From positions 2,789-66,788 of the forward strand of contig JBGSLZ010000052.1 of NCBI GenBank assembly GCA_041740415.1: a stretch of DNA of 64,000 nucleotides, given 5' to 3'. A program made the position numbers and the translations under genes. The notes under the pieces are model-generated. The model worked only from the letters and a program-made list of their open reading frames with translations, was not told the DNA's origin and searched no databases. This DNA is from Rubripirellula sp. GTDB lineage: Bacteria > Planctomycetota > Planctomycetia > Pirellulales > Pirellulaceae. This document shows, in pieces, positions 37,962 through 60,700 of the stretch (position 1 is its first letter; each line of letters opens with the position of its first letter).

Positions 37962-37975
37962 GCAAAATGCGCGCC
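37962..37975 (-). promoter_or_regulatory. Sigma-54 -24/-12 motif, PDZ operon
   Basis: GGCGCGCATTTTGC, about 90 bp upstream of 37871. Confidence 0.7.
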
Positions 37976-38061
37976 CTCTGCGATGAATAAACTCGCATTG
38001 TTGCATTGGGACTTCTTTTATACGACGAATCAGCTTGTACGTGTTGCTAAGCGACTGATCC

Positions 38062-38075
38062 GGCATGGCGATTGC
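38062..38075 (+). promoter_or_regulatory. Sigma-54 -24/-12 motif, 38173 gene
   Basis: GGCATGGCGATTGC, about 98 bp upstream. Confidence 0.72.
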
Positions 38076-38172
38076 GGCGCTCTCGCTGACACATTGGTCA
38101 CGTCGATTTGATCGCAGAGCTTTCGATGATGGCCTTCAAGCAACAACTCTGCATCGATTGAGGAACATATCC

Positions 38173-39255
38173 ATGACTATTCGGTTGACTCTCAGGGCCC
38201 TCGCTTTCACGGCGATTGGCTATTCACTCTCCATGTCCGCTCATGCCCAGGAGTTTGGCGGCAACAACGCCTATTACGAAGACGACGCATGGTACGACGT
38301 GACGGAGTGGTTTGACGGCAACGATTACAACCCCACCGACGAAGCGATCGGGCGATGGGATAATGAGACGTTTGAGTTCGCCGACAACGCCACCAGCGAT
38401 GATGCGGACAACGATTGGGAAACCAACTGGGGCGAGTATCGCTACAACAATCAAACCGCCGATTCGGATCGCTGGTTCTACGACTACTACGACGATGGCT
38501 ACGGCCATTGGGGCGACTATCGCGGCTGGAACAGCTACTCGCTCTACAACGACGCCAATAACGATGGTCTGTACGACAGCTACTCCTTTTACCGCGACAG
38601 CGATGGCGATGGTCTGTATGACGACTATACCTACTACAATTTCGATTCCAACAAAGCCGACGCGAGCGACAGCAAATCGCAGGTGGCTGCACAGGATCGT
38701 CAAAAATCGATGAAATCGGGCAGTGAGCAAGTGAGCGGTACGGTGGAGAAGACGAAGATGGCGAACGTTCGCGATCGTGTTCACTTGATCGCGACTGTGA
38801 AAGCCACGGACGGCAAGATGGTGACAATTGACCTCGGCCCCAAGCAGTCGTCGACTCAGTTGTTCAAGGGCGACCAGTTGTCCGCTACAGGACATCGTGT
38901 CAAAGTCGGTGATAAAGAACTGCTGGTTGCGACCAGTGCCAAGTCCAAGGACGCGGACGTCACGATCGATCGCAATGGACGCAAGTATCAGGGTACTGTC
39001 GAGAGCACCCGCGAAATTTCACTGCGTGGACAGAAGCATCTGTTGGCGAAGGTGAAGACGCAAGAAGGCAAGTCGATGATGGTCGATATGGGACCAGCGA
39101 GTCAACTTTCCAGTCAGCCCAAGGATGGATCGAAGATCACGGTTCAAGGCGTGCCGGTCAAGATCAAGGATCGCGTTGTGCTGATGGCACGCTCGGTCGA
39201 ACAAGACGGAAAGACGATGGACATCCAGCGAGCGATGGAAAAATCGAAGGGCTAG
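38173..39255 (+). CDS. Secreted protein with a D/Y/W-rich region and two OB-fold-like C-terminal repeats
   Basis: Signal peptide SAHA-Q; DANNDGLYD and DSDGDGLYD loops; duplicated G.VE..K...R..HL.A.V.T.DGK...DLGP units. Confidence 0.8.
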   Translation: MTIRLTLRALAFTAIGYSLSMSAHAQEFGGNNAYYEDDAWYDVTEWFDGNDYNPTDEAIGRWDNETFEFADNATSDDADNDWETNWGEYRYNNQTADSDRWFYDYYDDGYGHWGDYRGWNSYSLYNDANNDGLYDSYSFYRDSDGDGLYDDYTYYNFDSNKADASDSKSQVAAQDRQKSMKSGSEQVSGTVEKTKMANVRDRVHLIATVKATDGKMVTIDLGPKQSSTQLFKGDQLSATGHRVKVGDKELLVATSAKSKDADVTIDRNGRKYQGTVESTREISLRGQKHLLAKVKTQEGKSMMVDMGPASQLSSQPKDGSKITVQGVPVKIKDRVVLMARSVEQDGKTMDIQRAMEKSKG

Positions 39256-39276
39256 ACCGCTGTCGCAAGTGGATGT

Positions 39277-39310
39277 GGCGTGAGCGTGCCGTTTGAAACA
39301 CGCTCACGCC
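39277..39310. terminator. 12-bp hairpin between convergent genes
   Basis: GGCGTGAGCGTG-ccgtttgaaa-CACGCTCACGCC. Confidence 0.7.
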
Positions 39311-39324
39311 TGGGGCCGATGCCG

Positions 39325-39942
39325 TTATTGACCGTCATGGCGGCTTGGGTGCTTGCGTTGCTTCACTAATCGCAAGACCCACCACGCAAACATCGCGATT
39401 ACCACCGCGGTGCTAACCCATCCCAGCGGCCCGGCGAGATCGGCGTATTTGTCACCGAGCCAGTATCCGATCCCTGCCAACAGTGTTGTCCACATCACTG
39501 TCCCGATCGCGGTGAACGTGCAGAACTCTCCCACAGGCATCACTGCAAAACCGGCGGGCACGCTGATCAGCGTTCGCAGGCCGGGGATCATGCGGCAGAC
39601 TAACACCGCGACCGATCCTCGCCGCTCGAACCATTCATCGACGCGATCGAGGTCGTTAGGAGTGATCGTCAACCAAGCGCCGTGCCCTTCGATCCAGCTT
39701 GACAATCGTTCCTTGCCGACCCGACGACCGACGAAGTACCAGAACAAAGCTCCGGCAAACGAACCCGCGCTGCCAGCGGTGACGACCGCCAGAAACGATG
39801 CATCCCCTTGGCTGACCGCGTAACCCGCCCAGGGCATCACAATCTCCGACGGGATCGGTGGAAAGATGTTCTCAATCAACATCAAACCACCAACGCCAAT
39901 CGCCCCGAATTGTTCAAGAAAGTTTTTGATCCATTGGTCCAT
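39325..39942 (-). CDS. dedA: DedA family membrane protein
   Basis: ENIFPPIPSE, YFVGR, CRMIPGLRTLISVPAG. Confidence 0.92.
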   Translation of the reverse strand: MDQWIKNFLEQFGAIGVGGLMLIENIFPPIPSEIVMPWAGYAVSQGDASFLAVVTAGSAGSFAGALFWYFVGRRVGKERLSSWIEGHGAWLTITPNDLDRVDEWFERRGSVAVLVCRMIPGLRTLISVPAGFAVMPVGEFCTFTAIGTVMWTTLLAGIGYWLGDKYADLAGPLGWVSTAVVIAMFAWWVLRLVKQRKHPSRHDGQ

Positions 39943-40050
39943 CGTGTGGGTCTTCGGTGAAAGGATTAGACAACTGGAGTGTAGCCTTCAGGCGATTTTT
40001 AACGCTGACTGGATCGGCTCAAGCCTGGACTCCAATGCTTCTGCCGCGAT

Positions 40051-40064
40051 GCTAGAAACGTACC
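40051..40064 (-). promoter_or_regulatory. Sigma-54 -24/-12 motif, dedA
   Basis: (T)GGTACGTTTCTAGC; the -12 element is TAGC rather than TTGC. Confidence 0.6.
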
Positions 40065-40068
40065 AAGC

Positions 40069-40082
40069 GGTATGTGATTTGC
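40069..40082 (+). promoter_or_regulatory. Sigma-54 -24/-12 motif, 40182 operon
   Basis: GGTATGTGATTTGC, 100 bp upstream. Confidence 0.7.
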
Positions 40083-40181
40083 TCCCTAGAGACGAGATGA
40101 CTCGCGAGTGTTCCGTTTCTTCCGAGACAGAACATCGAATGACTCGCGTTTGTTCGCCAACGACGTTGAAGGAATGCCAGA

Positions 40182-40532
40182 GTGAGTGAAACGAATCCGC
40201 AGATTGAGGAACAACTCGATGCACTGGCCGAACTTTGTTGCCAGACGCTCAACGGTGACGACTCGGGGCTAGACAAGCGAAGCGATGCGTTGTTGAAATC
40301 ACTGCTCATGTGCGGGTATGTGCGAAAAGTCGGTCACAACATCACTGCGGAATTGGAATCGCGTGTTAAGACGCACTGTCCTGAACCAGCGATGCACCGG
40401 GGTGGTGCACTTTCGGGGATCACTCAGACGTTGCAACAGAAATTCAACAAGCTCGTGCAGTGGGAATCCGAGACGCCGCAGGAAACAACCCCGCCGAAGG
40501 CAGCAAACATCAGTTCCGCAACCGACGCCTGA
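40182..40532 (+). CDS. Hypothetical protein
   Basis: 116-aa ORF with AAGGA RBS and GTG start, first of two co-oriented ORFs. Confidence 0.7.
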   Translation: MSETNPQIEEQLDALAELCCQTLNGDDSGLDKRSDALLKSLLMCGYVRKVGHNITAELESRVKTHCPEPAMHRGGALSGITQTLQQKFNKLVQWESETPQETTPPKAANISSATDA

Positions 40533-40546
40533 ATAGGAGAAACATC

Positions 40547-41044
40547 ATTTCGAAATGTCTGATAGCAGAATACGAAACGAGTGCTGCCGCGAAAGTTGGC
40601 TTGGAAGTCCTTGAAAAGAGCAACTTCACGCTCGACCAAGTCTCCGTGGTTTCAAGCGCTGATGATTCCACCGCCGCGCATCTAAGAGATTTGGAAGACG
40701 AGCCTGAAGATCACACAACTTCTGCGTCCGCACCGGAAGGTCGCAATGTTTCGTTGGGCATGTTGATCGGCGGGACGGTTGCAGCGCCCATTGCCGCCGC
40801 GACTTTGATCGGACCGTTCATCATCGCCGGACCGCTTGTCGGTATCGCGATTGGTGCCGCAGTCGGTAGCTTGATCAAAATGGAAAACTGGGGTGTTGCT
40901 CACGATGTTACCGCCGACTACGAGCAGCGCGTCAAGTCCGGCTCTGTGTTAGTGATTGTTCACGACGTAGACGACCTCACACTGGACGATGCCAAAGCGT
41001 CGTTGAAAACGACGGGAGCGAAATCGCTTGAAAAACACGCATGA
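40547..41044 (+). CDS. General stress protein 17M-like membrane protein; start codon reads ATT
   Basis: AGGAGA-N6-ATT TCG AAA TGT; glycine-zipper TM (GPLVGIAIGAAVGSL), YEQRVKSGSVLVIV. Confidence 0.7.
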   Translation: MSKCLIAEYETSAAAKVGLEVLEKSNFTLDQVSVVSSADDSTAAHLRDLEDEPEDHTTSASAPEGRNVSLGMLIGGTVAAPIAAATLIGPFIIAGPLVGIAIGAAVGSLIKMENWGVAHDVTADYEQRVKSGSVLVIVHDVDDLTLDDAKASLKTTGAKSLEKHA

Positions 41045-41054
41045 GCCGAATTAA

Positions 41055-41110: not shown

Positions 41111-41196
41111 TAATCGGACACTGATCATTGAATCAAACGTCCGGAGTGAACTGGCTTAGTCAATTGATCACAAAACTTGGCATCATTGTACCGAGT

Positions 41197-42225
41197 TCAA
41201 GCGGATTGATGATCACGCTTCTCCATCACCCAGCGCACCAACATTCCAACGCCGTCATCGAAGTAGCGGTACGCAGATGCGAAGAACATCAGGTAGCGGT
41301 TGTAGGTTTCTACACCGACCAACTCGATTGCTTGCTCGCGATTGGAGACCAGCTTTTCAAACCAAGCTCTCAGCGTAGGTCGGTAGTCATGAATCGTTCG
41401 CTGCTTAATCACAAATCCGGCGGCTTCGTTCCATTTCACATGGTCAGCGTAGGCCGCGTTCAGTGATCCGGGAAAAAATATCTGTCCCACGATGGCCGTC
41501 GCGGGCAATCGCTTCTCATTGCGACAGAAGAAATGTTGGACCAAGCGTCCACCCGGCTTGAGCGCTCCCTGCAACTTCTGCATCAGCGGAAAAATATCAT
41601 TGGGGCGGACATGCTCCCAAGCACCAATCGAGTAAATCTTATCGTAATGTTCGCTTGGATAATCGGTTTTGATGAAGTCACGGAACTCGACGTTGAATCC
41701 GTTGTTGGCTTCATTAAACGCAACCTGTTCCTGAGACAACGTAAACCCGTGCAAGTTCTCCTTGTCACGCGTCTCTTCACAAATTCGCTTCAGCATTGCA
41801 CCCCATCCGCATCCCAATTCGAGAATGCGTTCCCCAGGTTTAGGATCGATCAATGAGATGAGATGGTTTGCCTTGATCGTTTGCGCCTCCTCGATCGACT
41901 CGTTTCCGTTGGGAAAGTCGGCACAGGTATAGAACATGTACTTGCTGTCCAGAAACAATTCATAAAAAGCATTGGACACGTCGTAATGAGCGGCGATGCC
42001 CTTAACGTGTGCTTGACGCATCTTGTTCGCGATCAGCAGTCCTCGCATGAATGTCGGCGGATAGTTTCGGCGAAACCAATCGAAGACTGGCGGAATTTTG
42101 CCCGTGATCCGCGTCCAAACCTCGTCGGGATCGAGCGGCTGCGGTGAACGGATCATGAACTTGACCCAGCCATAGGCTGGTCCAAACGTGAATGCTTCGA
42201 TAGGCAGCAAGGGATAGCGAATCAT
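41197..42225 (-). CDS. Cyclopropane-fatty-acyl-phospholipid synthase-like SAM methyltransferase
   Basis: IAAHYDVSNAFYELFLD..M.YTC, LELGCGWG, SIGAWEHV, IFFPG. Confidence 0.88.
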   Translation of the reverse strand: MIRYPLLPIEAFTFGPAYGWVKFMIRSPQPLDPDEVWTRITGKIPPVFDWFRRNYPPTFMRGLLIANKMRQAHVKGIAAHYDVSNAFYELFLDSKYMFYTCADFPNGNESIEEAQTIKANHLISLIDPKPGERILELGCGWGAMLKRICEETRDKENLHGFTLSQEQVAFNEANNGFNVEFRDFIKTDYPSEHYDKIYSIGAWEHVRPNDIFPLMQKLQGALKPGGRLVQHFFCRNEKRLPATAIVGQIFFPGSLNAAYADHVKWNEAAGFVIKQRTIHDYRPTLRAWFEKLVSNREQAIELVGVETYNRYLMFFASAYRYFDDGVGMLVRWVMEKRDHQSA

Positions 42226-42245
42226 GTTGTTACTCAAAGTGGTTT

Positions 42246-44084
42246 TCAAAACCGAAGGGGATTACAAACGGGAAGATCAATTCGGCTCGGGCTGACGCTG
42301 CCGTGAAACAAATGGAGTTGACGGCCTGGGCGGTTCTCAAAATTGTTTTCGTCAGCCATCGCGATGGAGAGCTGGATCTGGCTGCCACGGCGAAACAGGT
42401 ACGAAGTCGGTTGCAGGTCGAAGCAAACATGCTGCTTCTTCTGCGCGTGAGTATGGTCAGTATCAACACTCGATGAATTTGGACCGGCTTCATTTCGAGT
42501 GAACCGGCGGTAAGGTGTGCCAAGTTTGCGACAGGCTTCTGATTGCATCGATCCATCAGATTGTGTCTCGGATTGATGAAGGAGGCTCAGTCCACCTTCG
42601 GTTACCATCCATACTCGACCCCTCGGATCAACATCTTCCAAATAGACAAATAGCGCGGCATCAGCGACATCGGTTTTGATGTGCAAATTGACCACCGGAT
42701 GGCCAGTGACTTCAATATCGCTGGCAAGTCGCGGCGACCGAAAACATAGCATACTCCGACCCGCGGCCCGCCGATCGGGATATTGGACTTTGCCGTTAAT
42801 CTCGACTTGCGTTTGCCATCGATTCCGTTTTCCAGTCGTCGTCGGTTGCCGTTCGTATCTTGAATGGCATTGCGTTGCATCCGGCCCAGATTCGAGTCTT
42901 CCACCCGAATTGAGAAAAAGCGAGGCAACGCAAGTTCCCGTTGGTGGCCATTGCTGTGACGATTTCCATCGGGACTCGCCCATCGTGAAGTATTGCACGG
43001 GCGGCTGTTCGGCCAATGCATTCGATCGACCGCGAACGTGCAGATCAAAGAACTGTAGCAGTAAACGATCATGGTCAAAGTAGTTCACACGAGACCGCTT
43101 CATCGGTTCGATATGTCTCGCCCCGCCATGATTCCATGGACCCAGTAAAAGCCGGCTGCCGGGATTGGGTATTCGTACAAACCTCAATGCGGCGGCTCTC
43201 GCATACGCACCGTCCCACCAGCCGCTGACGCCAAAAACTGGAATGCTCGTTGACGCGATTCGATTTGAATAGTGGACGGGACTGATGAGCTGGCTGCCTC
43301 GCAAAACTTCACCATTTTCGCCGGCCGCATTTTGAATCTCCGAAGTCGCTTCCTCTGGTTCATCGTCTGCAAAAGATATTTGTCGCACCCGCTCCCAGAC
43401 ATCGTCGTTCACGCGATGCTGCGAGATCGCTTCCATCAACAGGCGTCGATCTCGGTCGGATGCCACTGCGGTCACGCCACTGGTAAGCAGCCGCACCCAA
43501 CCACCAGCGATCTCGTGTAATCGGTTGGCATCCAGAGCAGCGTTCAACCTGCTCCAACGCTCGACGAATCCGCGATTGAGCAAACCTCCGGGAAACCCGA
43601 TGTCGGCGAACGAATCGCATGAACTGAATCGTGGTGCGATGGCTTTCAATGCCGGATGGCCGGTTGTCAACAACATTTCTGCTGCGGTCCCGTCATACGA
43701 TATCCCCAGCGAGCCCAGAGAGCCGTTGGACCAAGATTGCGAGCCAATCCACTCGACGATCTCGTAGCCGTCAGCGACTTCTGCTTGTGACCACGGACTG
43801 ATGCGATGCCCAAAAGATGCACCTGAGCCGCGTACATCGACATCCACCCATGCGTAACCGGCCTCTAAGAAGCGCCGACGTCGTTTGGCATACAGCCCGC
43901 TGTGGTCAATCGGTCGATTTCGCGTTAGCCAATTGAGTGGCGGTCGCAGTTGTATCGAGCGGAAGTAACGAGTCTGCCGTAGGATCGTCGCTGCTGGCCG
44001 GTGCTGGGAATGCGGCAACCAGACGTCCGCCGCAAGACGAACCCCATCGCGCATCGTCAAATAGTAAGACTGATAATCGAACAC
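42246..44084 (-). CDS. CocE/NonD family serine hydrolase
   Basis: MRDGVRLAAD, DVRGSGAS, GISYDG, GPWNH. Confidence 0.9.
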   Translation of the reverse strand: MFDYQSYYLTMRDGVRLAADVWLPHSQHRPAATILRQTRYFRSIQLRPPLNWLTRNRPIDHSGLYAKRRRRFLEAGYAWVDVDVRGSGASFGHRISPWSQAEVADGYEIVEWIGSQSWSNGSLGSLGISYDGTAAEMLLTTGHPALKAIAPRFSSCDSFADIGFPGGLLNRGFVERWSRLNAALDANRLHEIAGGWVRLLTSGVTAVASDRDRRLLMEAISQHRVNDDVWERVRQISFADDEPEEATSEIQNAAGENGEVLRGSQLISPVHYSNRIASTSIPVFGVSGWWDGAYARAAALRFVRIPNPGSRLLLGPWNHGGARHIEPMKRSRVNYFDHDRLLLQFFDLHVRGRSNALAEQPPVQYFTMGESRWKSSQQWPPTGTCVASLFLNSGGRLESGPDATQCHSRYERQPTTTGKRNRWQTQVEINGKVQYPDRRAAGRSMLCFRSPRLASDIEVTGHPVVNLHIKTDVADAALFVYLEDVDPRGRVWMVTEGGLSLLHQSETQSDGSMQSEACRKLGTPYRRFTRNEAGPNSSSVDTDHTHAQKKQHVCFDLQPTSYLFRRGSQIQLSIAMADENNFENRPGRQLHLFHGSVSPSRIDLPVCNPLRF

Positions 44085-44097: not shown

Positions 44098-44748
44098 CTA
44101 TTCCTTTGCCTCGCTGACGTCCGATAGATATTTGCCGTACCCTTCCGCCTTCATCTGATCCTTCGCTACGAATCTCATGGCTGCCGAATTCATGCACCAT
44201 CGTTTTCCGCCGCGGTCCGTAGGCCCATCTTCAAAGACGTGTCCGACGTGCGAGTCTGCTAGCTTGGATCGAACTTCCGTGCGCGCCGAAAGCAGCGTGT
44301 TGTCTTCACGCAAAACGATGAACTGAGCGTCCAAAGGTTGCACAAACGACGGCCAGCCGGTTCCCGACTTGTACTTGTCAGCGGAAGAAAAGAGCGGCTC
44401 ACCCGAAACGACATCGACGTAAATGCCGCTGCCTTTGTTGTCCCAGTATTCGTTCATGAAAGCGGGTTCCGTGCCGTCTTGCTGCGTAACGCTATATTGT
44501 ATCTCTGTCAAATCTTGTTTCAGTTTCGCTTCCGTTGGCTTCTTAAAATCGGTCCATGGTTGCTTGGCTATGTCTTTTTCGTCGCTGTCGACTTCGCTTC
44601 GCGAAGAACCAACACTACCGTCGCCGCCGGCGGGGTAAGCAACGTGACGGGCCGCGATTGGCTCACTGGTAGATGCAGAATCATCTTGACATCCGGCCAG
44701 GGCGACAACGGCGACAAGAGGAACGAGCAGCGTAAGTTTTGTGGTCAT
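44098..44748 (-). CDS. msrB: Peptide-methionine (R)-S-oxide reductase, lipoprotein, zinc-free type
   Basis: LAG-C lipobox; GTEPAF, GWPSF, RTEVRS, SHVGHVF.DGP, RWCMNS; no CxxC zinc motifs. Confidence 0.93.
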
Positions 44749-44827
44749 CTTTATTTCACCCTTAGGCGTGGTTCCGGTGGACGCGGCTGAACGCAACTGC
44801 GTGCCGCGTCAATCAAGCCGTAGGTCG

Positions 44828-44841
44828 GCAACTTCCATACC
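44828..44841 (-). promoter_or_regulatory. Sigma-54 -24/-12 motif, msrB operon
   Basis: (T)GGTATGGAAGTTGC, 80 bp upstream. Confidence 0.75.
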
Positions 44842-44886
44842 AACGTCGCTGGTGCGAGAACCGACACGACCTGATGCATGCGCCAC

Positions 44887-44900
44887 GGCACACGAATTGC
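44887..44900 (+). promoter_or_regulatory. Sigma-54 -24/-12 motif, fasciclin gene
   Basis: GGCACACGAATTGC, about 79 bp upstream. Confidence 0.75.
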
Positions 44901-44978
44901 TTCGGACAGCTGTGGATTGATCTCGTGATCGACTTCATTCGGGGTCTGCGAGTCATGGAACTTTACTGGAGAAGTGTT

Positions 44979-46552: not shown

Positions 46553-46611
46553 GTTCTCTTGTAAGGGGTTAGTCGCTAATTGATTCGAGTCATTACTCGA
46601 AGAAGCTAGTC

Positions 46612-46625
46612 GCAAACCTCGTGCC
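46612..46625 (-). promoter_or_regulatory. Sigma-54 -24/-12 motif, 46552 gene
   Basis: GGCACGAGGTTTGC, near-consensus, 60 bp upstream. Confidence 0.8.
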
Positions 46626-46674
46626 TACTTTGGACATGCCTTGGCTTCATTTCTCGGCATACTTTGCGAAGGTT

Positions 46675-51859: not shown

Positions 51860-51909
51860 CGATTCCTCCCGAGTTGTAGCGTGGTTAGTTTTCTACTACG
51901 TCGTGGGAC

Positions 51910-51923
51910 GCAAGTTCTATGCC
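51910..51923 (-). promoter_or_regulatory. Sigma-54 -24/-12 motif, epimerase-VKOR-SPW operon
   Basis: GGCATAGAACTTGC, about 50 bp upstream. Confidence 0.75.
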
Positions 51924-51965
51924 GTTGCTTGCGGTCCGTTTTCCAATCGCTTGCCTCACGCCCTC

Positions 51966-51979
51966 GGCACAGCATTTGC
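51966..51979 (+). promoter_or_regulatory. Sigma-54 -24/-12 motif, lipoprotein-SDR-oxidase operon
   Basis: GGCACAGCATTTGC, about 54 bp upstream of 52033. Confidence 0.75.
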
Positions 51980-52032
51980 GACCCCGATGGTTTGCAGAAA
52001 TGAATGTTCGCCCCTAAATGATTGAGAAAAAG

Positions 52033-52242: not shown

Positions 52243-52323
52243 CATTGAGAACTCCGGGAAGATGACCTGGCAGACATGTTGCCGAAACGACCTTCCTGAT
52301 ACCACGCAAACTGATCCATCTAA

Positions 52324-54192: not shown

Positions 54193-56672
54193 ACGAACAA
54201 GCCCAACGATTGCTCGAAGCGTGGCGAACACCGAAAGGATGGCGGTACTGGTCCGCCGTCAATAATTCCGAAGTCGGGCTGTGGTACACGATCACGGCGT
54301 TCGCGTTCCTGCTGTTCGGTGGATTGCTCGCGCTGGCGATGCGCATCCAACTCGCCGTTCCCGATAACGATTTTCTCACGGCGGATCAATACAACCAAGT
54401 CTTCACGATGCACGGCAGCGTGATGATGTTCTTGTTTGCCGTGCCGATCCTCGAAGCGATCTCGATCTTGCTGTTGCCGCAAATGATGGGCGCTCGCGAC
54501 TTGCCGTTTCCACGTTTGTCAGCTTACGGATTTTGGTCGTTCCTGATCGGTGGCATCTTTGTTTGCGGCTCGCTTTTTTTCGGTGCGGGACCACGCGGTG
54601 GATGGTTCATGTATCCACCGATGACGACGGAATATCAAACCGATGTGGGAGCCGACATTTGGCTGCTTGGTCTGTCGTTTATCGAAATCGCGTCGATCGC
54701 AGCAGCAGTCGAGCTGATCGTCGGTGTGCTGAAATGCCGCCCGCCAGGGATGCGATTGAACTTGATCCCGCTGTACGCTTGGTACATCTTGGTGGTCGCG
54801 GCGATGATCCTGTTCGCCTTCCCACCATTGATCGCCGGTGACTTGTTGATGGAGTTGGAACGGGCACTGGATTGGCCGTTCTTTGACGTGTCACGCGGCG
54901 GCGATCCGATGTTGTGGCAACATCTGTTCTGGATTTTCGGACATCCTGAAGTCTACATCGTGTTCCTGCCGTCGATCGCCTTGGTGGCAATGATCGTCCC
55001 GACATTTGCGCGCACACCGATGGTCGGCTATGGCTGGATTGTGCTGGCGGCGGTCGGCACTGGCTTCCTGAGTTTCGGGTTGTGGGTTCACCACATGTTC
55101 ACCACCGGATTGCCAGGAATCACGATCGGAATTTTCTCGGCGGCATCCGAAGCCGTTGCAATTCCAACGGGCGTGCAAATCTTTTGCTTCATCGCCACGC
55201 TGCTGGTCGGTCGAGTCACCAAGTCCGTCTGTTTGCTGTTCGTACTGGCAGGGTTGGCCACGTTCATCATCGGTGGTTTAACCGGAGTGATGGTCGCGAT
55301 CGCACCGTTCGACTATCAAGCTCACGACACTTACTTCATCGTCGGCCATCTGCACTACGTCCTGGTCGGCGGCACCATCTTCCCAATTGTCGCAGGCGTC
55401 TACTATTTCTATCCGTTGGTCACTGGCAAGCAGCTCTCCGAGCGACTCGGCACGATCGCATTTTGGCTGATGATGATCGGCTTCAACGTCAGCTTCTTTC
55501 CGATGCACATCACCGGATTGATCGGAATGCCACGGCGAGTCTACACCTATCCAGCGGGCATGGGATTCGACAACCTGAACATGATTTCGTCGATCGGTGC
55601 TTTTGTATTGGCCGCTGGATTTGTGGTCTTTTTGTGGGATTTGCTGCGACCAAAAGGCAAACAACCGCTCGCGCCTCGGAACGTGTGGAACGCGGGAACG
55701 CTGGAATGGTTGGCTGAAGTTCCCGATCAACCGTGGGGCGTCCGCAGCATTCCGATTATCAAATCACGCTATCCGCTCTGGGATCAAGAGAACTTTGTGC
55801 GCGACGTTGATGAAGGAAAATTCTATCTTCCCGATGCAGAAGAGGGCTTGCGAGAAACGCTGGTGACATCGACGGTCGAAGCGACACCGATTCAGTGTTT
55901 ACGAGTTCCCGGTCCAACGTTCTTGACCTTGGGGGCGGCTGTCTTTACCGGCGGTGTTTTTATCTTCGGCACGTTTCACTGGTATGTTGCAACCTGCATC
56001 AGCGGTGTGCTGGCGTTCTTCACCATTCTTGCTTGGTTGTGGACAGGCACGGCGATCATCCCCGAGAAGACCGAGAAAGACGTTGGCTTAGGCTTGACGC
56101 TGCCGATCTATGTGTCGGGACCGGACGCGGTCGGATGGTGGGCCATGTTCATCACGATGCTGGGTGACATGACCGCGTTCATGTCGTTGGTGTTCGGATA
56201 CTTTTTCTACTGGACGGTTCACGAAGACTTTCCGCCAAAGGACGTTGATGGTCCCGGAGTTATCTGGCCATTGGTATCAGTCATTTGTACTTTGATCGCG
56301 TGGACATTGATGCTGCTGTCGCGTAAGTCGAACCGCCGCGAAGGTGCCGGAGTGTTTTACATCATCACGGTGTTGTCGGTCGTCATGGCATGCTGTGCCG
56401 CGGGCTCGCTGGTCGCTGGACCTTGGCTGCACCAGATGGACCCGACCGAGCATGTTTATCAATCGTCGGTTTGCGTACTCGTGTTATGGACCGTTGTTCA
56501 TTTGGCGGTCGGCGTTGTCATGCAGTTGTATTGCATGGCACGACGCGCGGCCGGGAAGATGACACATCGTTTTGATGCTGACATTGTGAACGTGACTCTG
56601 TACTGGCACTTCATGATGCTGACCGCAGGCATTACGGGACTAACGATCGCCTTGTTTCCGTTGGCGGCGTGA
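54189..56672 (+). CDS. ctaD: Cytochrome c oxidase subunit I fused to a subunit III-like C-terminal domain (alternative, CoxN-like)
   Basis: TMHG, GHPEVY, VHHM, GHLHY; the extra C-terminal region has WWAMFITM and LYWHF. Confidence 0.92.
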   Translation: MNEQAQRLLEAWRTPKGWRYWSAVNNSEVGLWYTITAFAFLLFGGLLALAMRIQLAVPDNDFLTADQYNQVFTMHGSVMMFLFAVPILEAISILLLPQMMGARDLPFPRLSAYGFWSFLIGGIFVCGSLFFGAGPRGGWFMYPPMTTEYQTDVGADIWLLGLSFIEIASIAAAVELIVGVLKCRPPGMRLNLIPLYAWYILVVAAMILFAFPPLIAGDLLMELERALDWPFFDVSRGGDPMLWQHLFWIFGHPEVYIVFLPSIALVAMIVPTFARTPMVGYGWIVLAAVGTGFLSFGLWVHHMFTTGLPGITIGIFSAASEAVAIPTGVQIFCFIATLLVGRVTKSVCLLFVLAGLATFIIGGLTGVMVAIAPFDYQAHDTYFIVGHLHYVLVGGTIFPIVAGVYYFYPLVTGKQLSERLGTIAFWLMMIGFNVSFFPMHITGLIGMPRRVYTYPAGMGFDNLNMISSIGAFVLAAGFVVFLWDLLRPKGKQPLAPRNVWNAGTLEWLAEVPDQPWGVRSIPIIKSRYPLWDQENFVRDVDEGKFYLPDAEEGLRETLVTSTVEATPIQCLRVPGPTFLTLGAAVFTGGVFIFGTFHWYVATCISGVLAFFTILAWLWTGTAIIPEKTEKDVGLGLTLPIYVSGPDAVGWWAMFITMLGDMTAFMSLVFGYFFYWTVHEDFPPKDVDGPGVIWPLVSVICTLIAWTLMLLSRKSNRREGAGVFYIITVLSVVMACCAAGSLVAGPWLHQMDPTEHVYQSSVCVLVLWTVVHLAVGVVMQLYCMARRAAGKMTHRFDADIVNVTLYWHFMMLTAGITGLTIALFPLAA

Positions 56673-57037
56673 GGCTTATGAACATCAATCTCTGGTGGCT
56701 GACATTCTCACCGCTTTGCTGGGCCAGCCATTTCCTAGCGAGCTATTTGACGACTGCAATCTACTGCGCCAAGTTTACTTCAGCGGACAGTGATGCGATG
56801 CCCGTTCGCATTGCTGTCGCTATTTTTACCGCCATTGCACTGACAATGATTGCGACAATTGGCGTGACAAGTTTGCGAGTGCATCGCATGGGACATGCGA
56901 CATTGCCGCATGACGACGACACACCGCGCGACGAACAGCGTTTTCTTGGATTTGCGGCTTTGTTGTTATCAATTTTGAGCGGTATCGCGACGCTCTTTAC
57001 CGCGCTCGTCTTCTTTTTCATGGAGACCTGTCACTGA
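56669..57037 (+). CDS. Three-TM accessory membrane protein of the oxidase operon
   Basis: Overlapping junctions; WASHFL.SY...YCAK. Confidence 0.75.
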   Translation: MRLMNINLWWLTFSPLCWASHFLASYLTTAIYCAKFTSADSDAMPVRIAVAIFTAIALTMIATIGVTSLRVHRMGHATLPHDDDTPRDEQRFLGFAALLLSILSGIATLFTALVFFFMETCH

Positions 57038-57726
57038 TGCGTTTGGCAACTTGGAATCTCGGTTGGATTTTGCTCGCGGTGGCTTGGATGGGGCCGCTAC
57101 CGCGCTGGGCCGAAAGTTCGTTTGCGGCCCACATGACGCTGCACATGTTGATCGTTGCGATGGTCGCGCCGCTGTTGTCGATCGCGATAGCGGGGCTTCG
57201 ATACGATCCAGTGCAAAAAGTTCCCGCATTGTTTTCGCCGATCCCCGCCTCGGTAGGTGAGTTGCTGATCGTGTGGGCGTGGCACGCTCCGCGACTGCAT
57301 CACTGGGCACGTCATGAATCGCTCGGATTGATTGTTGAGCAAGGAATGTTCCTGGCCGTCGGAATGTGGGTGTGGTTATCGGCGTTCGGTGGCAGTCAAC
57401 CACGAAGCCACGGTCGAGCCGGCGCGGGAGTGGTTGGTCTGCTGTTGACCTCGATGCACATGACCTTCTTGGGTGCATTATTGGCGCTGTCGCCACGTCT
57501 GCTTTATCAGCATCATCATGCGGGATCAGGACTGACTCCGCTGACGGATCAACATGTTGGCGGCGCGGTGATGTTGGTCGTCGGCGGCATCGCCTACTTG
57601 GTAGGCGGACTTTGGTTGACGAGGGATTTAGTGCGTCCCACGAGCCGTTTTGATGCAGACCACCGCTCTCTCGCAAAAAACGTCGCTAGCGCTGCAGCAG
57701 CGAGCCACTCGGAGCTAATTCAATGA
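57037..57726 (+). CDS. Cytochrome c oxidase assembly factor (caa3 CtaG type)
   Basis: HMTLHMLIV..APL, WAWHAP, DQHVGG..M. Confidence 0.85.
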   Translation: MRLATWNLGWILLAVAWMGPLPRWAESSFAAHMTLHMLIVAMVAPLLSIAIAGLRYDPVQKVPALFSPIPASVGELLIVWAWHAPRLHHWARHESLGLIVEQGMFLAVGMWVWLSAFGGSQPRSHGRAGAGVVGLLLTSMHMTFLGALLALSPRLLYQHHHAGSGLTPLTDQHVGGAVMLVVGGIAYLVGGLWLTRDLVRPTSRFDADHRSLAKNVASAAAASHSELIQ

Positions 57727-58814
57727 AACGACGACTCAAAGAACTTGCAATCTTGCTAACGGCACTCGGCATTCTTGGCGTGATCGTACTCGTCTCGGGA
57801 ATCGTCCCGATCAAGGCGAGCAGCGGGCATTGGCCGATCACGCGGTGGACGCTTGACTTCGCCAGTGATCGTTCGGTTGGTTTGCACAGTATCGGTATCG
57901 AGGTTCCGCCGCTGGACGAACCCGGCATGGTCCGGCTGGGTGCAGCGACCTTCGACAGCAATTGTCGCTGGTGCCACGGCGCGCCCGGGTTTGCGCAGCC
58001 ACCCGTCGCCGCACAGATGACTCCGCATCCACCGAAACTGTCCGAAGCGGTGAATCTGTGGGACGATGCTGAGTTGTTCTACATCTTGAAACACGGCATC
58101 AAGTTCGCCGGGATGCCTGCTTGGCCGACGCAGAAGCGTGAGGAAGAAATCTGGCCCGTCGTCGCCTTCTTGCGTGAGTTGCCGACGACCGACGCCAGCC
58201 AGTACCTCAACTTGATTCAGCCGGCTTCTACCGAAATTCAAGCGATCGAAACGCCGATCGCCTATCAAGTTGCAAGGTCGTGTGCCGCCTGTCACGGAAT
58301 GACCGGCAGCACACCCGTCAGCGATCGCGTGCCAAACCTGGCTTCGCAGAGTCAGGCGTATCTGAAGAGATCGTTGCTCGCTTATCAAACCGGCGACCGA
58401 TACAGCGGCGTGATGATGCCGATTGCTCATCCTTTGACAGACCAACAAATCGACGAGCTGGCAAGTTATTTCGCCAAACAACCACGCAGTGCCTCGCCTC
58501 CGACGGCCTCGTTAGATATAGGCTTGATCGAAACAGGTCGCAGACTTGCCAACGAAGGCGACCAATCCGCAAAAATTCCATCGTGTGTCGACTGTCATGG
58601 ACCAGGAGAAATCATACGAAGCGACGAATACCCGACGCTGGCTGGTCAACCCGCACAATATCTACAACGACAGCTTGAGTTGTTCGCCAAAAGAAACCGA
58701 GGCGGCAGCGACAACGCATCACTCATGCACCCCATCGTCGACAAACTGGGCGACGCTCAGCGACTCGCTCTGTCGTTCTACTACGCTTCACTCCATGAAG
58801 ACAGCGACAATTGA
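57723..58814 (+). CDS. Membrane-anchored triheme c-type cytochrome
   Basis: CRWCH, CAACH, CVDCH. Confidence 0.9.
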   Translation: MKRRLKELAILLTALGILGVIVLVSGIVPIKASSGHWPITRWTLDFASDRSVGLHSIGIEVPPLDEPGMVRLGAATFDSNCRWCHGAPGFAQPPVAAQMTPHPPKLSEAVNLWDDAELFYILKHGIKFAGMPAWPTQKREEEIWPVVAFLRELPTTDASQYLNLIQPASTEIQAIETPIAYQVARSCAACHGMTGSTPVSDRVPNLASQSQAYLKRSLLAYQTGDRYSGVMMPIAHPLTDQQIDELASYFAKQPRSASPPTASLDIGLIETGRRLANEGDQSAKIPSCVDCHGPGEIIRSDEYPTLAGQPAQYLQRQLELFAKRNRGGSDNASLMHPIVDKLGDAQRLALSFYYASLHEDSDN

Positions 58815-59392
58815 AAACCATATCGCTGACCAAACCAGACGCCGACGACGTGCTACGCTTTCTGGAGCAGCAATCGAAGTGCGACTTCAACTATCCCGAT
58901 GTTGGAGCAACAAGCGGCGAGTTGCCAATGGGCTATGACCATCACCGTACCGAAGTTACCTTGGGGCAAGGCGAGACTGTCTATCAACGAGCCAAATCGG
59001 CGTTACTGGCCTGGGAGCAGTTCGATGTCGGATGGGTCAGCGCGTTACCCGCGAGCACGCCGATCCGCGAGGGTGAGAATATCGCAATCCGCGCTCGCAT
59101 CTTTGGACTTTGGGCGCTTGCGGCTTGCCGAATCGTTAGAGTCTTTGACGACAACGCTTCGGCGACAAAGACTTTCGGCTTTGCGTTTGGTACGCTGCCA
59201 GGACATCCCGAGCAGGGTGAAGAGCAATTTGAAATTGTCTGTGACGCAAACTTGATCGTGACGTATCGCATCGCGGCATTTTTTCGTCCCAACTATCTAG
59301 CAGCGAAATTAGCGTGGCCCTACTTTCGTATTTGCTTCAACGACTTTCGACACCAATCCACCGACACACTTCTTCGCAGATGCAATGAATAG
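58811..59392 (+). CDS. DUF1990 family protein
   Basis: FNYPDVGAT, LGQGE, CRIV, FGFAFGTLPGHPEQGEEQF. Confidence 0.85.
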   Translation: MKTISLTKPDADDVLRFLEQQSKCDFNYPDVGATSGELPMGYDHHRTEVTLGQGETVYQRAKSALLAWEQFDVGWVSALPASTPIREGENIAIRARIFGLWALAACRIVRVFDDNASATKTFGFAFGTLPGHPEQGEEQFEIVCDANLIVTYRIAAFFRPNYLAAKLAWPYFRICFNDFRHQSTDTLLRRCNE

Positions 59393-59448
59393 GTTGCCCG
59401 AATCACCTCAAAACTGAACCGTCTATCCTCACAATGAAAGCCCACAGA

Positions 59449-59688
59449 ATGCTTGCTGACTTTAGTATTTGGACCCTTGATGACCCACACATGCGTGACG
59501 ACATGCAGGTGGTTCGCGACACGCTTGACGAGCGCGGAATCTCGTACACGATGAACAAAATGTCGACGACAATTGAAGGATCGCTTGCTGAGATTAGTGA
59601 GTCGATTGAAGCGTGCCGGCAAAGGTTAGCAGTCACGCATAATCGATTGCTGATCCAGATCACCTTCGACGACGATCGCTCAAAATAA
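59449..59688 (+). CDS. Thiamine-binding (MTH1187/YkoF-like) protein
   Basis: MLADFSI, MSTTIEG, DDRS. Confidence 0.7.
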   Translation: MLADFSIWTLDDPHMRDDMQVVRDTLDERGISYTMNKMSTTIEGSLAEISESIEACRQRLAVTHNRLLIQITFDDDRSK

Positions 59689-59825
59689 CTCGGCAAAATA
59701 ACTCGGTGCCATCCACAAAGTATGGGCGGAAACATTTACGCCGCGTTGTTGCTTGCACCAGCTACCTGTACGAACACGCGGTTGGACGCGACAATCGCTG
59801 GTCGAGCGGCATGGACGACGAAACG

Positions 59826-59876
59826 TCTACGGAGTGGGCATTCTCTCAAAGCCGGTAAGTGATGAATGGCTCGACT
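59826..59876 (+). pseudogene. About 50-bp relic of an alpha/beta hydrolase paralogous to 32251-33072
   Basis: Encodes YGVGILSKPVSDEWLD, against FYGVGVLSKPVSDEYLQ at 32738-32788. Confidence 0.75.
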
Positions 59877-59901
59877 TACGCATTTTGCACAGGCAACGAT
59901 G

Positions 59902-60018
59902 TCACCTTTTCCAGTGGACTTCCGCAACGCAATTTTCGCAGTCGCAGCCTGCGGTAACATGGATTTCAAAGTCACATTTGGTACAAGGGTACATATCGCC
60001 GGTGGTAGGGGCTTTCAT
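59902..60018 (-). CDS. 38-aa Cys-rich metal-binding-type peptide, possibly 3'-damaged
   Basis: MKAPTTGDMYPCTKCDFEIHVTAGCDCENC; downstream of the CsbD-like gene. Confidence 0.55.
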   Translation of the reverse strand: MKAPTTGDMYPCTKCDFEIHVTAGCDCENCVAEVHWKR

Positions 60019-60065
60019 TTTCTTACTTTCACAGGAGCAACGGAACAAAGAGACATCGTCTGCCA

Positions 60066-60512
60066 TTATCGCGACCAGCGATCGCGCCAAGAAAGCTCTC
60101 GCTCACGTTGGCCGCCGATCGAGATACCTACGAACAATCCAACCAGTAGTCCCACGCCCAGAGCAACGCCAGCGGACTCCAAAGGGTGGCGCGACATACT
60201 TTTTACTGACGTCTGATAGCTTCGGCGAGCTTGTTCTGCAGTCGCATCGTAACCGTCGCGGATTGTTTGACCTGCCTCGCTCGCATAGTTCGCAACTTGA
60301 CCCATGACGGAATCCGCCGACGCACAGCATTCGTCAAAGTACGCCTCGATCTGGTCGCGGCTCTGGCCAGTCTTCTGTTGAACCAGGCCCGCCAACTTAT
60401 CCAAGTCGCCTTCGACTTGCTTTAATTCGTTGTCAGTGATTTCGCCGTATTTCTTCTTCACTGAGCCGACGATCGAGTTCCATTTTCCGCTAATTTCTTG
60501 TTTCGTAGCCAT
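60066..60512 (-). CDS. csbD: CsbD family protein with an ElaB/DUF883-like C-terminal TM
   Basis: GKWNSIVGSVKKKYGEITDNEL..VEG..DKLAGLVQQKTG; HPLES.GVALGVGLLVG. Confidence 0.88.
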   Translation of the reverse strand: MATKQEISGKWNSIVGSVKKKYGEITDNELKQVEGDLDKLAGLVQQKTGQSRDQIEAYFDECCASADSVMGQVANYASEAGQTIRDGYDATAEQARRSYQTSVKSMSRHPLESAGVALGVGLLVGLFVGISIGGQRERELSWRDRWSR

Positions 60513-60613
60513 CGTAAATTCCTCGTGTAACAGCGTCTGTTTATCAGCTTCAATTGCGTCGCTGATGCTCTTGCGCAGCCTCAGAAAGGCAGCGACGAAC
60601 ACTCTCCCGACAA

Positions 60614-60627
60614 GCATTTGTCGTGCC
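60614..60627 (-). promoter_or_regulatory. Sigma-54 -24/-12 motif, csbD
   Basis: (T)GGCACGACAAATGC, about 100 bp upstream. Confidence 0.75.
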
Positions 60628-60686
60628 AAGTTAAATCAATTACGCGTGCCGCTTTAGTGTCGCTCGCACTCATGTATTGAGAGCTT

Positions 60687-60700
60687 GGCGCGCCGTTTGC
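60687..60700 (+). promoter_or_regulatory. Sigma-54 -24/-12 motif, PRC-barrel gene
   Basis: (T)GGCGCGCCGTTTGC, about 60 bp upstream. Confidence 0.75.

Follow-up and report, generated by a model that had tools for sequence, protein, structure and literature searches.

Putative sigma-54 promoters upstream of general-stress and envelope genes in Rubripirellula and other Pirellulaceae

The window analyzed here is a 64-kb stretch of Rubripirellula DNA. Between 37 and 62 kb, 12 of about 14 transcription units have a sigma-54-type site, mostly in divergent pairs with 2–84 bp between the paired promoters. The original prediction had named 11 GG-N10-GC motifs in this region, and all of them were found at the positions and on the strands it gave, in intergenic DNA and correctly oriented. 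We scored both strands with a sigma-54 matrix, our own literature-style approximation of the TGGCACG-N4-TTGCW consensus. The top 20 matches in 128 kb of strand included ten of the 11 sites, at 11.5–15.8 bits. For the 11 sites, the distance to the start codon is 37–107 nt, against a predicted range of about 50–110 bp. Two further sites, at 52268(+) and 18123(+), had been missed.

The leftmost site of the cluster, GGGCGCGCATTTTGCG (37961..37976, – strand; 37962(-) in the original prediction), is weak (8.6 bits) and lies 89 nt 5′ of a gene for a secreted protein with two PDZ domains (36633–37871, –; Pfam PDZ_2), whose orthologue at related locus L003 has a 14.8-bit site. CGGCATGGCGATTGCG (38061..38076, +; 12.7 bits) lies 93 nt 5′ of the gene for a secreted 361-aa protein (38170–39255, +), and 14.3-bit sites are seen at its orthologues in L010–L013. 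TGGTACGTTTCTAGCA (40050..40065, –; 12.6 bits) and CGGTATGTGATTTGCT (40068..40083, +; 12.5 bits) stand back to back, 2 bp apart. The former is 107 nt 5′ of a DedA/VTT gene (39325–39942, –; Pfam VTT_dom), with weaker sites at the orthologues (9.6–11.7 bits). The latter is 98 nt 5′ of an operon encoding a 116-aa Pirellulaceae-specific protein (40182–40532) and a ‘Gsp17M-like’ DUF1269 protein (40601–41044); 8/9 orthologous loci have sites of 15–16.6 bits. TGGTATGGAAGTTGCC (44827..44842, –; 12.5 bits) lies 78 nt 5′ of msrB (44098–44748), which probably forms one operon with the same-strand genes for an S15 peptidase (42246–44084) and a CMAS-type methyltransferase (41197–42225). CGGCACACGAATTGCT (44886..44901, +; 14.5 bits) is 74 nt 5′ of a fasciclin-domain protein gene (44976–45539, +), and AGGCACGAGGTTTGCG (46611..46626, –; 13.0 bits) is 61 nt 5′ of a gene for a 107-aa membrane protein (46226–46549, –), with a 10.4-bit site at 50 nt in the L003 orthologue.

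Further along, CGGCATAGAACTTGCG (51909..51924, –; 11.5 bits) lies 49 nt 5′ of an operon of an NAD-epimerase-type SDR (50801–51859) and VKOR (50193–50729). Upstream sites of 13–18 bits occur at 12/15 orthologous Pirellulaceae loci, and when the SDR upstream region was aligned across 11 taxa, GGCAT..TTGC was the sole invariant non-coding block. CGGCACAGCATTTGCG (51965..51980, +; 12.0 bits) is 37 nt 5′ of a gene for a 74-aa lipoprotein (52018–52242, +), whose orthologues have sites of 15.1 (L002) and 16.4 bits (L015). The first added site, TGGCAGACATGTTGCC (52268..52283, +; 11.6 bits), lies 182 nt 5′ of an SDR gene (52466–53272), downstream of which are a caa3-type cytochrome c oxidase operon (53269–58814) and a DUF1990 gene (58811–59392); in L001, an 18.4-bit site precedes the orthologous oxidase operon. 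The oxidase had been taken for an alternative oxidase, but its genes encode COX2-cytochrome c, COX1, CtaG and a dihaem cytochrome c. The other family assignments, among them CsbD, DUF1269, PRC barrel, MsrB and DedA, agree with Pfam. TGGCACGACAAATGCT (60613..60628, –), the best of the window at 15.8 bits, is 100 nt 5′ of a gene for a CsbD-DUF883_C protein (60066–60512, –). TGGCGCGCCGTTTGCT (60686..60701, +; 14.1 bits) is 89 nt 5′ of a PRC-barrel gene (60791–61345, +), with which an SDR gene (61521–62366) may be co-transcribed and whose L003 orthologue has an 18.2-bit site. Far to the left lies a candidate outlying site, TGGCATTGGGCTTGCG (18123..18138, +; 12.9 bits), 225 nt 5′ of a GH130-GT4-GH130 operon (18364–23197).

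Could such motifs be an artefact of composition in GC-rich intergenic DNA? GG-N10-GC alone was not enriched, and a loose pattern with two mismatches occurred in the whole window at the frequency expected by chance (29 versus 28.8), both of which fit that explanation. Since the loose pattern is at chance window-wide, the signal is specific to intergenic DNA. In the 4553 bp of intergenic DNA at 37–62 kb, 11 matches scored at least 11 bits versus 0.63 expected from dinucleotide-preserving shuffles (n = 300); the shuffles gave at most 5, and 0/300 reached 11. Intergenic DNA at 1–36.6 kb showed no enrichment (1 match versus 0.84 expected), in line with the claim that 1–25 kb holds nothing comparable, though TGGCATTGGGCTTGCG is an exception to it. 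All 12 intergenic matches of the window face a gene start no more than 250 bp away, and matches are denser in intergenic (1.02 per kb) than in coding DNA (0.15 per kb). Counting against a sigma-54 reading are matches of similar score within coding sequence, at 27047(-), 49720(-) and 63215(-), the weakness of GGGCGCGCATTTTGCG and the moderate scores of the other window sites.

The same scan of related Pirellulaceae loci (about 325 kb) gave 82 sites scoring 13 bits or more versus 9.6 expected. Across window and related loci, GGCAY-N5-TTGC occurs 75 times, versus 7–20 times for each of the other spacers from N2 to N9, so enrichment is limited to the canonical spacing. The motif is kept with orthologues in more than 10 Pirellulaceae genera, with invariant GG and GC blocks and a variable spacer. 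It precedes orthologues of the PDZ, 38170, 40182, 52018, PRC-barrel and oxidase genes although gene order differs, and between genera the sites stay at orthologous positions while the flanks diverge. Together, the shuffles, the cross-genus conservation and the spacer-specific enrichment refute the chance explanation, to which we give practically no weight.

A different protein might nevertheless read the motif. Its halves, TGGCA and TTGCA, look like a direct repeat, as for a regulator binding TKGCA repeats one helical turn apart, and a divergent sigma-70-family factor could also be considered, given the stress-induced ECF sigma factors of R. baltica; the link to RpoN itself is drawn from sequence. 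Yet the site logo, Y-GG-C/T-A-C/T-R-N4-T-T-GC, extends beyond mere GG-N10-GC and agrees with the sigma-54 consensus wherever a position is informative, with no conservation outside the motif. Only the canonical spacing is tolerated, orientation toward the downstream gene is strict and distances are promoter-like. Elements for sigma-70-family factors are 16–18 bp apart, not 4–5 bp, and rpoN is near-universal in the class, being present in 32/33 Planctomycetia genomes (RB6491 in R. baltica; Wecker 2009). We therefore consider a factor other than sigma-54 improbable.

The putative sigma-54 promoters extend beyond the families of the window. In relatives, the same motif precedes genes for Gsp26/PNPOx-like, Dps, Transgly_assoc, Pmp3, BON, DUF1328, DUF883-type, bPH_2 and BrkB proteins. 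Among 64 environmental Gsp26 loci, 21 had a sense site scoring 12 bits or more, versus 6 antisense and about 1 expected, and 20 of these 21 upstream sites lie 25–135 nt from the start. A 13.7-bit site lies 70 nt before Roseimaritima gsp26, and Singulisphaera (Isosphaeraceae) has one of 13.2 bits at 63 nt. In high-GC planctomycete lineages, the –24 element reads GGCCC, GGTCY or GGCGY. As judged by these motifs, the predicted sigma-54 wiring reaches other Planctomycetota orders, at least for Gsp26.

Expression data from other workers tie counterparts of some of these genes to stress. In R. baltica, RB10950/10956/10958, RB4433/4438 and msrB RB2268 are up-regulated under heat, cold and salt, and RB10950–10958 and RB4433–4438 are expression-defined loci of the shared response to these stresses. 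RB10956/RB10958 are the stress-induced counterparts of the 40182 + 40601 operon, and RB2268, of the same family as the window's msrB, belongs to the shared response. As an independent test, the counterparts of the R. baltica stress loci in Rhodopirellula sp. P2, paired by length, pI and spacing, were found to carry the motif. It is a weakness of the general-stress label that it draws on analogy of protein families and on array data for three loci of another genus. Of the ‘stress or dormancy’ role first proposed, the stress half finds backing in these families and counterparts; dormancy finds none.

True sigma-54 promoters need not form one stress regulon, however. Planctomycetia have a mean of about 21.5 enhancer-binding proteins (EBPs) per genome, several of which could act here on separate signals, each switching on a subset of the units, and no common enhancer motif was found among 69 promoters. 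Alternatively, the common theme could be the cell envelope or exterior, with the cluster reflecting a genomic island of envelope genes. Secreted and membrane proteins are frequent among the targets (PDZ protein, fasciclin, lipoproteins, DedA, oxidase, Na/Ca exchanger), in line with the ‘bacterial exterior’ hypothesis for sigma-54 (Francke 2011). The R. baltica profiles also differ by locus, RB10956 responding strongly to cold and heat and hardly to salt, RB4438 to all three. Set against this, cytoplasmic Gsp26, Dps, MsrB and DJ-1/PfpI have the same promoter type, and the genes with R. baltica counterparts belong to the group induced under heat, cold and salt alike. Moreover, in EBP-specific regulons the target usually has both the EBP gene and a recognizable enhancer beside it. 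Here no EBP gene was found in the window, as the original prediction held, or in any Pirellulaceae island examined, and the 69 promoters showed no shared enhancer motif. An RpoN signature was likewise not found in the window. Separate regulons or an envelope theme seem unlikely, though a good deal less so than a factor other than sigma-54.

The motifs are probably genuine –24/–12 promoters of sigma-54 (RpoN), belonging to a conserved Pirellulaceae regulon for general stress and envelope protection; we infer that these units depend on sigma-54, that one signal co-regulates them and that an activator is involved. Sigma-54 promoters require an EBP, and the failure to find an EBP gene in the window or the islands examined, or an enhancer motif common to the promoters, counts against this reading. 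In the proposed mechanism, sigma-54 RNA polymerase would bind GG (–24) and GC (–12) as a closed complex, which an AAA+ EBP encoded elsewhere in the genome would remodel with ATP, and only then would transcription begin, about 12 nt downstream. Given that no enhancer motif is shared and that paired promoters lie so close together, an activator working without a conventional upstream enhancer, such as an EBP without a DNA-binding domain, is a reasonable suggestion by analogy with CtcC of Chlamydia trachomatis. Also counting against the sigma-54 reading, rpoN of R. baltica is not induced by heat and is down-regulated by salt. Three ECF sigma factors of this species are induced under heat, cold and salt alike (Wecker 2009) and could be the stress regulators. 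If the sigma-54 reading is correct, it suggests that in Planctomycetota sigma-54, and not a factor of the SigB, RpoS or EcfG type, governs the general stress response.

That such wiring had not been described for Planctomycetes holds in part. Sigma-54, its activators and some stress-related targets had been discussed in silico, with hints of sigma-54 stress targets (Studholme and Dixon 2004; Wecker 2009; Carrera-Reyna 2025) that include thioredoxin RB10378, UspA, MscS, chaperones, proteases and CsrA. Those predictions share phylum and promoter class with the present sites. Their accessible text neither names promoters of CsbD, Gsp26, Dps, DUF1269, PRC-barrel, DedA or MsrB genes nor proposes sigma-54 as a general stress factor, and the COG numbers of these families are absent from the supplements as far as these were available. 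A literature search found no paper stating a sigma-54-driven general stress regulon for Planctomycetota.

The sites share with canonical sigma-54 promoters the GG and GC 10 nt apart, the C-A-Y and T-T flanks, strict spacing, a gene-facing orientation and their position, 37–182 nt before start codons. They differ in that, in the window, –26 T is often C, in being known from sequence and in having no adjoining EBP gene or enhancer that we could find. In content, the set resembles the regulons of SigB (Bacillus), RpoS (E. coli) and EcfG–NepR–PhyR (Alphaproteobacteria), which we take to control CsbD, Gsp26/YdaG-type PNPOx-like, Gsp17M/DUF1269, PRC-barrel, Dps, BON/OsmY-type, DUF883/ElaB-type, Pmp3/YqaE-type, Transgly_assoc and MsrB proteins. 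Those regulons use sigma-70-family factors under anti-sigma factors, partner switching or proteolysis, whereas the promoters here are of the sigma-54 class, which has ATP-dependent activators and tight off-states. [quoted passage not shown] In C. trachomatis, sigma-54 with CtcB–CtcC drives a program of membrane reorganization when the cells turn into the resistant infectious form. CtcC has no DNA-binding domain; an activator of this kind would account for enhancer-less promoters. Unlike here, sigma-54 in Chlamydia acts mostly on chlamydia-specific membrane proteins and type III effectors, and Chlamydia has a single EBP versus about 20 in Planctomycetia. Sigma-54 also drives stress-protective genes through RtcR–rtcBA, ZraR, NorR and the Borrelia RpoN–RpoS cascade. 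PspF controls membrane stress (Francke 2011). The PspF–psp, RtcR–rtcBA, ZraR and NorR modules of Proteobacteria have one or few promoters with the EBP encoded beside the target, and Borrelia works by a cascade through RpoS; in Pirellulaceae, by contrast, no EBP gene was found nearby and dozens of predicted promoters lie directly on general-stress effector genes.

Both strands of the window were scored with a matrix that approximates the published sigma-54 consensus, TGGCACG-N4-TTGCW. All 11 motifs of the original prediction, between 37962 and 60700, were recovered where and in the orientation they had been reported. Ten of them were among the 20 best matches in the window, with scores of 11.5–15.8 bits; the other, 37962(-), is weak (8.6 bits). 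An additional site that had escaped the prediction, 52268(+), lies upstream of an SDR gene (52466) and the oxidase operon. At all 12 sites of the 37–62 kb part of the window (the island), GG and GC are exactly 10 nt apart in a TGGCAC-N5-TTGC context, and 11 of these sites score at least 11.5 bits. The gap between motif and start codon ranges from 37 to 182 nt, and 12 of the ~14 transcription units of the island have a site.

To gauge the background, we used dinucleotide-preserving shuffles of intergenic DNA (n = 300) on a curated gene map. Intergenic DNA of the 37–62 kb region holds 11 matches of at least 11 bits, versus 0.63 expected, and none of the 300 shuffles reached 11. In the intergenic DNA of 1–36.6 kb, one match was seen versus 0.84 expected. 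Across the window, each of the 12 intergenic matches faces a start codon no more than 250 bp away, and matches are denser in intergenic than in coding DNA (1.02 versus 0.15 per kb). These data bear out the earlier claim that the sites are intergenic and point toward genes. Counted over the whole window, TGGCACG-N4-TTGC with two mismatches and GG-N10-GC alone each occur only at chance frequency. Location therefore matters, with the signal emerging only when matches are intergenic, oriented and scored.

The sole comparable site outside the island, at 18123–18138 (+), scores 12.9 bits and lies 225 nt upstream of a GH130-GT4-GH130 operon (18364–23197), whereas the original prediction had noticed no comparable match by eye before backbone genes in 1–25 kb. 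The products of this operon might act on compatible solutes of the mannosyl type; a gene for a HAD/S6PP-like phosphatase is located at 29557–31266. Three matches within coding sequence have scores (12.6–14.1 bits) similar to those of the promoter sites: 27047–27062 (-), antisense within a HEAT-repeat gene; 63215–63230 (-), within a Na/H exchanger gene; and 49720–49735 (-), at 12.6 bits. The last was not counted as a promoter, being inside the 48565–49764 coding sequence, the start of which was set by an orthologue (L010). All three are probably false positives, the alternative being internal or antisense promoters.

Next to orthologous genes in other genomes, the two elements of the motif are retained and the spacer and flanks are not. 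Upstream of the SDR orthologues, a 13–18-bit site is present in 12 of 15 Pirellulaceae loci, mostly 42–44 nt from the start. In an alignment of 11 taxa, GGCAT...TTGC is the only invariant non-coding block, and the four bases of the spacer vary. The motif also precedes orthologues of 40182, which encodes a 116-aa protein (8 of 9 loci), and those of the PDZ gene, the secreted-protein gene 38170, gene 46226, the small lipoprotein gene, the PRC-barrel gene and the oxidase operon. It is kept even where gene order differs. DUF1269 and VKOR genes, assigned as operon-internal, have no site of their own. Throughout ~325 kb of Pirellulaceae loci, there are 82 sites of at least 13 bits, versus 9.6 expected (maximum 14), and almost all have an ORF start 12–270 nt downstream. 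Spacing is strict: GGCAY-N5-TTGC occurs 75 times, versus 7–20 times for each of the spacers N2–N4 and N6–N9. The logo of the 75 sites reads T-GG-C-A-Y-R-N4-T-T-GC-W, with zero information outside.

Some features of individual loci are also worth recording. In Stieleria magnilauensis (L009, ~9830–9945), a unit of 17–18 nt, TTCGCAGTGTCTTGGCG, is repeated in about six tandem copies directly upstream of the SDR promoter, running into the –24 element; two copies are present in L012. In R. europaea (L005), low-depth contigs from two marine metatranscriptomes, covering 9865–10423, run through the site at 9920–9935. Coverage of this kind speaks neither for nor against the promoter. The remaining runs in this survey were genome or metagenome assemblies, and for the window itself the survey turned up no RNA run.

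A bipartite motif this strict in orientation, with a single short spacing, is consistent with sigma-54 but with no promoter of the sigma-70 family. Footprint, abundance and geometry thus provide three independent lines pointing to the sigma-54 class, and, judged from sequence, we predict with high confidence that these sites are sigma-54 promoters. The factor itself is widespread in this group: rpoN is RB6491 in R. baltica (Wecker 2009), and Carrera-Reyna 2025 gives rpoN in 32 of 33 Planctomycetia genomes, with an average of ~21.5 enhancer-binding proteins.

Which genes lie behind these promoters? Pfam searches of the island identified a secreted protein with two PDZ domains, DedA/VTT, DUF1269, MsrB, fasciclin, an epimerase-type SDR with VKOR, CsbD with a DUF883-type C-terminus, a PRC-barrel protein, further SDRs, a CMAS-type methyltransferase and an S15 peptidase. 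The target families named in the original prediction were thereby confirmed, except that the operon it called an 'alternative oxidase' encodes a cytochrome c oxidase of the caa3 type. Five of the families in the window are hallmarks of general stress: CsbD, DUF1269, PRC, SelR/MsrB and VTT/DedA. The first 36 kb, motif-free but for 18123(+), encodes hydroxyproline catabolism, VWA/DUF58 proteins, a hybrid kinase, HEAT-repeat and HAD proteins, hydrolases and a transposase. An Rfam scan of the window gave zero matches.

In relatives, Pfam families behind the motif include Pyrid_ox_like, Pmp3, BON, DUF1328, Ferritin/Dps, Transgly_assoc, bPH_2 and BrkB. The genes behind it encode small stress proteins (Gsp26-type PNPOx-like, Pmp3, BON, DUF1328, DUF4235 and LEA-like lipoproteins) and membrane or lipid functions (BrkB/YihY, a Na/Ca exchanger, DUF1206, DUF998, a YegS-type lipid kinase and a CDP-alcohol phosphatidyltransferase). 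bPH_2 and a receiver-only response regulator are found there as well. Many families found behind the motif are typical of SigB, RpoS or EcfG regulons.

Orthologues of the window SDR with 71–85% amino-acid identity occur only in Pirellulaceae (Rhodopirellula, Aporhodopirellula, Neorhodopirellula, Allorhodopirellula, Stieleria and several MAGs), and the family of the 116-aa protein is likewise confined to Pirellulaceae, with Roseimaritima the closest named genus (78%). Exact-match look-ups of the window SDR and of the Roseimaritima 116-aa protein returned no matches. The window DNA itself was found only in a biofilm/hot-spring metagenome run. Given the distribution of these homologues and the origin of the DNA, the window is therefore a piece of the chromosome of an uncultured member of the Pirellulaceae. 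An intact transposase gene of the Mutator family (IS256-like; 28149–29396, -) divides its higher-GC left part (~0.59–0.61) from the lower-GC right part (~0.52–0.56). In the SDR encoded at 61464–62366 (+), the domain match ends near residue 235 of 300 and the rest of the C-terminus looks unrelated, which points to a frameshift or misassembly close to the 3' end. At 47059–48395 (+), CheB_methylest and a C-terminal fragment of CheR fall in two overlapping ORFs, which seem to be the remains of a large, decayed CheB-CheR-PAS-histidine kinase. Rhodopirellula sp. P2 (L022) has that kinase in intact form (1611 aa) at ~7 kb from its stress operon, and in L003 a CheB match is also close to the island.

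Published expression data from R. baltica link counterparts of a few of these genes to stress. Microarrays identified 62 genes induced alike by heat, cold and salt, and RB10950/56/58, RB4433/38 and msrB (RB2268) are induced by all three (Wecker 2009). In Rhodopirellula sp. P2, a series of genes encoding proteins of 233 aa, 117 aa (pI 4.85) and 145 aa (pI 5.27) was matched by lengths, pI and spacing to RB10950, RB10956 (117 aa, pI 4.8) and RB10958; the 117-aa protein is a homologue of that encoded by 40182. At this P2 locus, the leading lipoprotein gene is preceded by a 13.0-bit site, and DUF1328 together with the 117-aa gene by one of 9.8 bits. What has been published as the 'general stress cluster' of R. 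baltica runs from RB4433 (Dps, 162 aa) to RB4438 (PNPOx, 160 aa); P2 has its exact counterpart, with sites before Dps (12.8 bits), a divergent deaminase-receiver-DedA operon (12.7 bits), DJ-1/PfpI-CMD-oxidoreductase (13.3 bits) and a PALP enzyme (15.7 bits). In Roseimaritima multifibrata, a 13.7-bit site lies 70 nt upstream of gsp26, and msrB of the window, which has a site, belongs to the same family as RB2268.

The same arrays sustain a rival explanation, in which stress control rests on ECF sigma factors. Three of these factors are induced by all three stresses, and rpoN is not induced by heat and is reduced by salt (Wecker 2009). In that study, the classic regulators did not respond, and ECF sigma factors were suggested in vague terms. 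ECF-based control is thus a live alternative. Yet the behavior of rpoN is compatible with control of sigma-54 at the level of its activator. Response profiles differ between the R. baltica loci, so several activators may divide the set. As to the claim that this lineage wires its general stress response to sigma-54, the promoter class and the gene families hold up, and a single general stress regulon is probable. The combined reading, sigma-54 promoters serving a general stress regulon, is one we consider likely.

How far does this wiring extend? A Gsp26 protein profile retrieved 80 metagenome loci, of which 64 were non-duplicate and had enough upstream sequence. The best sense-strand site scored at least 8, 10 or 12 bits in 48, 36 and 21 of the 64 loci, respectively, versus 12, 8 and 6 for the antisense strand; about one locus is expected by chance at 12 bits. 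At the same thresholds, 47, 35 and 20 of the sense sites lie 25–135 nt from the start, with a mode of 40–80 nt. Among named organisms, the closest relatives of these proteins all come from Planctomycetota (Pirellulales and Planctomycetaceae MAGs and Singulisphaera). In Singulisphaera sp. PoT (Isosphaeraceae), a 13.2-bit site 63 nt before gsp26 is one of only two matches of at least 10.5 bits in 12.5 kb. Wiring of gsp26 to this motif thus spans several orders of Planctomycetota. In a 10-Mb genome of 69% GC, CGGTTCGGGATTTGCA lies 59 nt upstream of gsp26. High-GC planctomycete lineages among the metagenome loci often have GGCCC, GGTCY or GGCGY at –24 rather than GGCAC and retain TTTGC at –12; these –24 variants score low with our matrix, which is proteobacterial in style. 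In the Litorimonas, Bradymonadales and Phycisphaeraceae loci, the SDR-VKOR operon, the gene pair behind 51909(-), is without the motif. Outside Planctomycetota, a Gemmatimonadales MAG (L016) has a 13.4-bit site at 9854 before the SDR-VKOR orthologue. It also encodes a GSFTGA-type enhancer-binding protein at ~19.3 kb, 9 kb from the site, and is the sole locus examined with such a protein nearby.

No RpoN signature was found in the 64-kb window, and no signature of an enhancer-binding protein in the window or the Pirellulaceae loci, in agreement with the prediction that the window encodes no such activator. Searches for a shared upstream element were also negative. For the seven intergenic regions of the window, the best 8-mer, ATGACTCG, was present in three, and ~3 such 8-mers are expected by chance. 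In a dyad and k-mer search from –220 to –8 of 69 non-redundant promoters, no element was shared by more than five, ribosome-binding sites of divergent genes excepted. This is no bar to the sigma-54 class, because enhancer-binding proteins may be encoded elsewhere or act enhancer-free. CtcC of Chlamydia (PVC superphylum), FlgR and FleT are activators that work from solution without an enhancer.

The arrangement of the promoters also bears on this point. Most of them form divergent pairs: five island intergenic regions contain such a pair, with upstream edges 2, 40, 43, 57 and 84 bp apart. The pair at 40050–40083 stands back to back, 2 bp between sites, and in Roseimaritima (L024, 8626–8686) the two sites cross, such that the predicted transcripts would overlap by a few nucleotides. 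Such spacing leaves little room for an enhancer 80–150 bp upstream, which argues against conventional enhancers and makes an activator acting from solution an attractive hypothesis. Sigma-54 holoenzyme would form closed complexes at the sites, and a AAA+ activator, possibly acting from solution, would trigger opening under stress. A global activator of this kind could be an enhancer-binding protein without a DNA-binding domain. Receiver-only regulators and an Hpt-like protein are under the same type of promoter, a hint that a phosphorelay may feed the sigma-54 system. More speculatively, sigma-54 might be the general-stress master of Planctomycetota, filling the role of SigB, RpoS or EcfG through an enhancer-free global activator, as an ancestral PVC trait. 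We regard this broader scenario as rather unlikely. The proposed trait would be related to the programme by which sigma-54 and CtcC convert Chlamydia to its resistant form.

Planctomycete sigma-54 promoters, rpoN and enhancer-binding proteins had been described in silico, and thioredoxin, UspA, MscS and chaperones were among the stress-linked targets predicted (Wecker 2009; Carrera-Reyna 2025). None of the COG numbers for CsbD, MsrB, DedA, fasciclin and Gsp26 occurs in the accessible text and supplements of Carrera-Reyna 2025. Our literature search, which covered papers other than Studholme and Dixon 2004, found no statement that planctomycete general-stress effectors lie behind sigma-54 promoters. 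The original claim of novelty is thus only partly right, since planctomycete sigma-54, its activators and some stress-linked targets had been discussed before.

A conserved sigma-54 promoter on effector genes provides a concrete hypothesis of stress control for genetically tractable planctomycetes. The motif could help to annotate planctomycete-specific 'hypothetical' genes, such as the 40182 family, as stress genes, and its promoters could serve as tightly regulated parts for genetic tools. Should the hypothesis be borne out, the general stress response would here rely on the enhancer-dependent, ATP-driven mechanism of sigma-54, which keeps promoters tightly off and integrates signals at AAA+ activators. 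To our knowledge, every well-studied general stress response uses a factor of the sigma-70 family. The system is best seen as joining known kinds: its gene set resembles those of the SigB, RpoS and EcfG regulons, which makes it a regulon of the general-stress type, whereas its promoters belong to the sigma-54 class.
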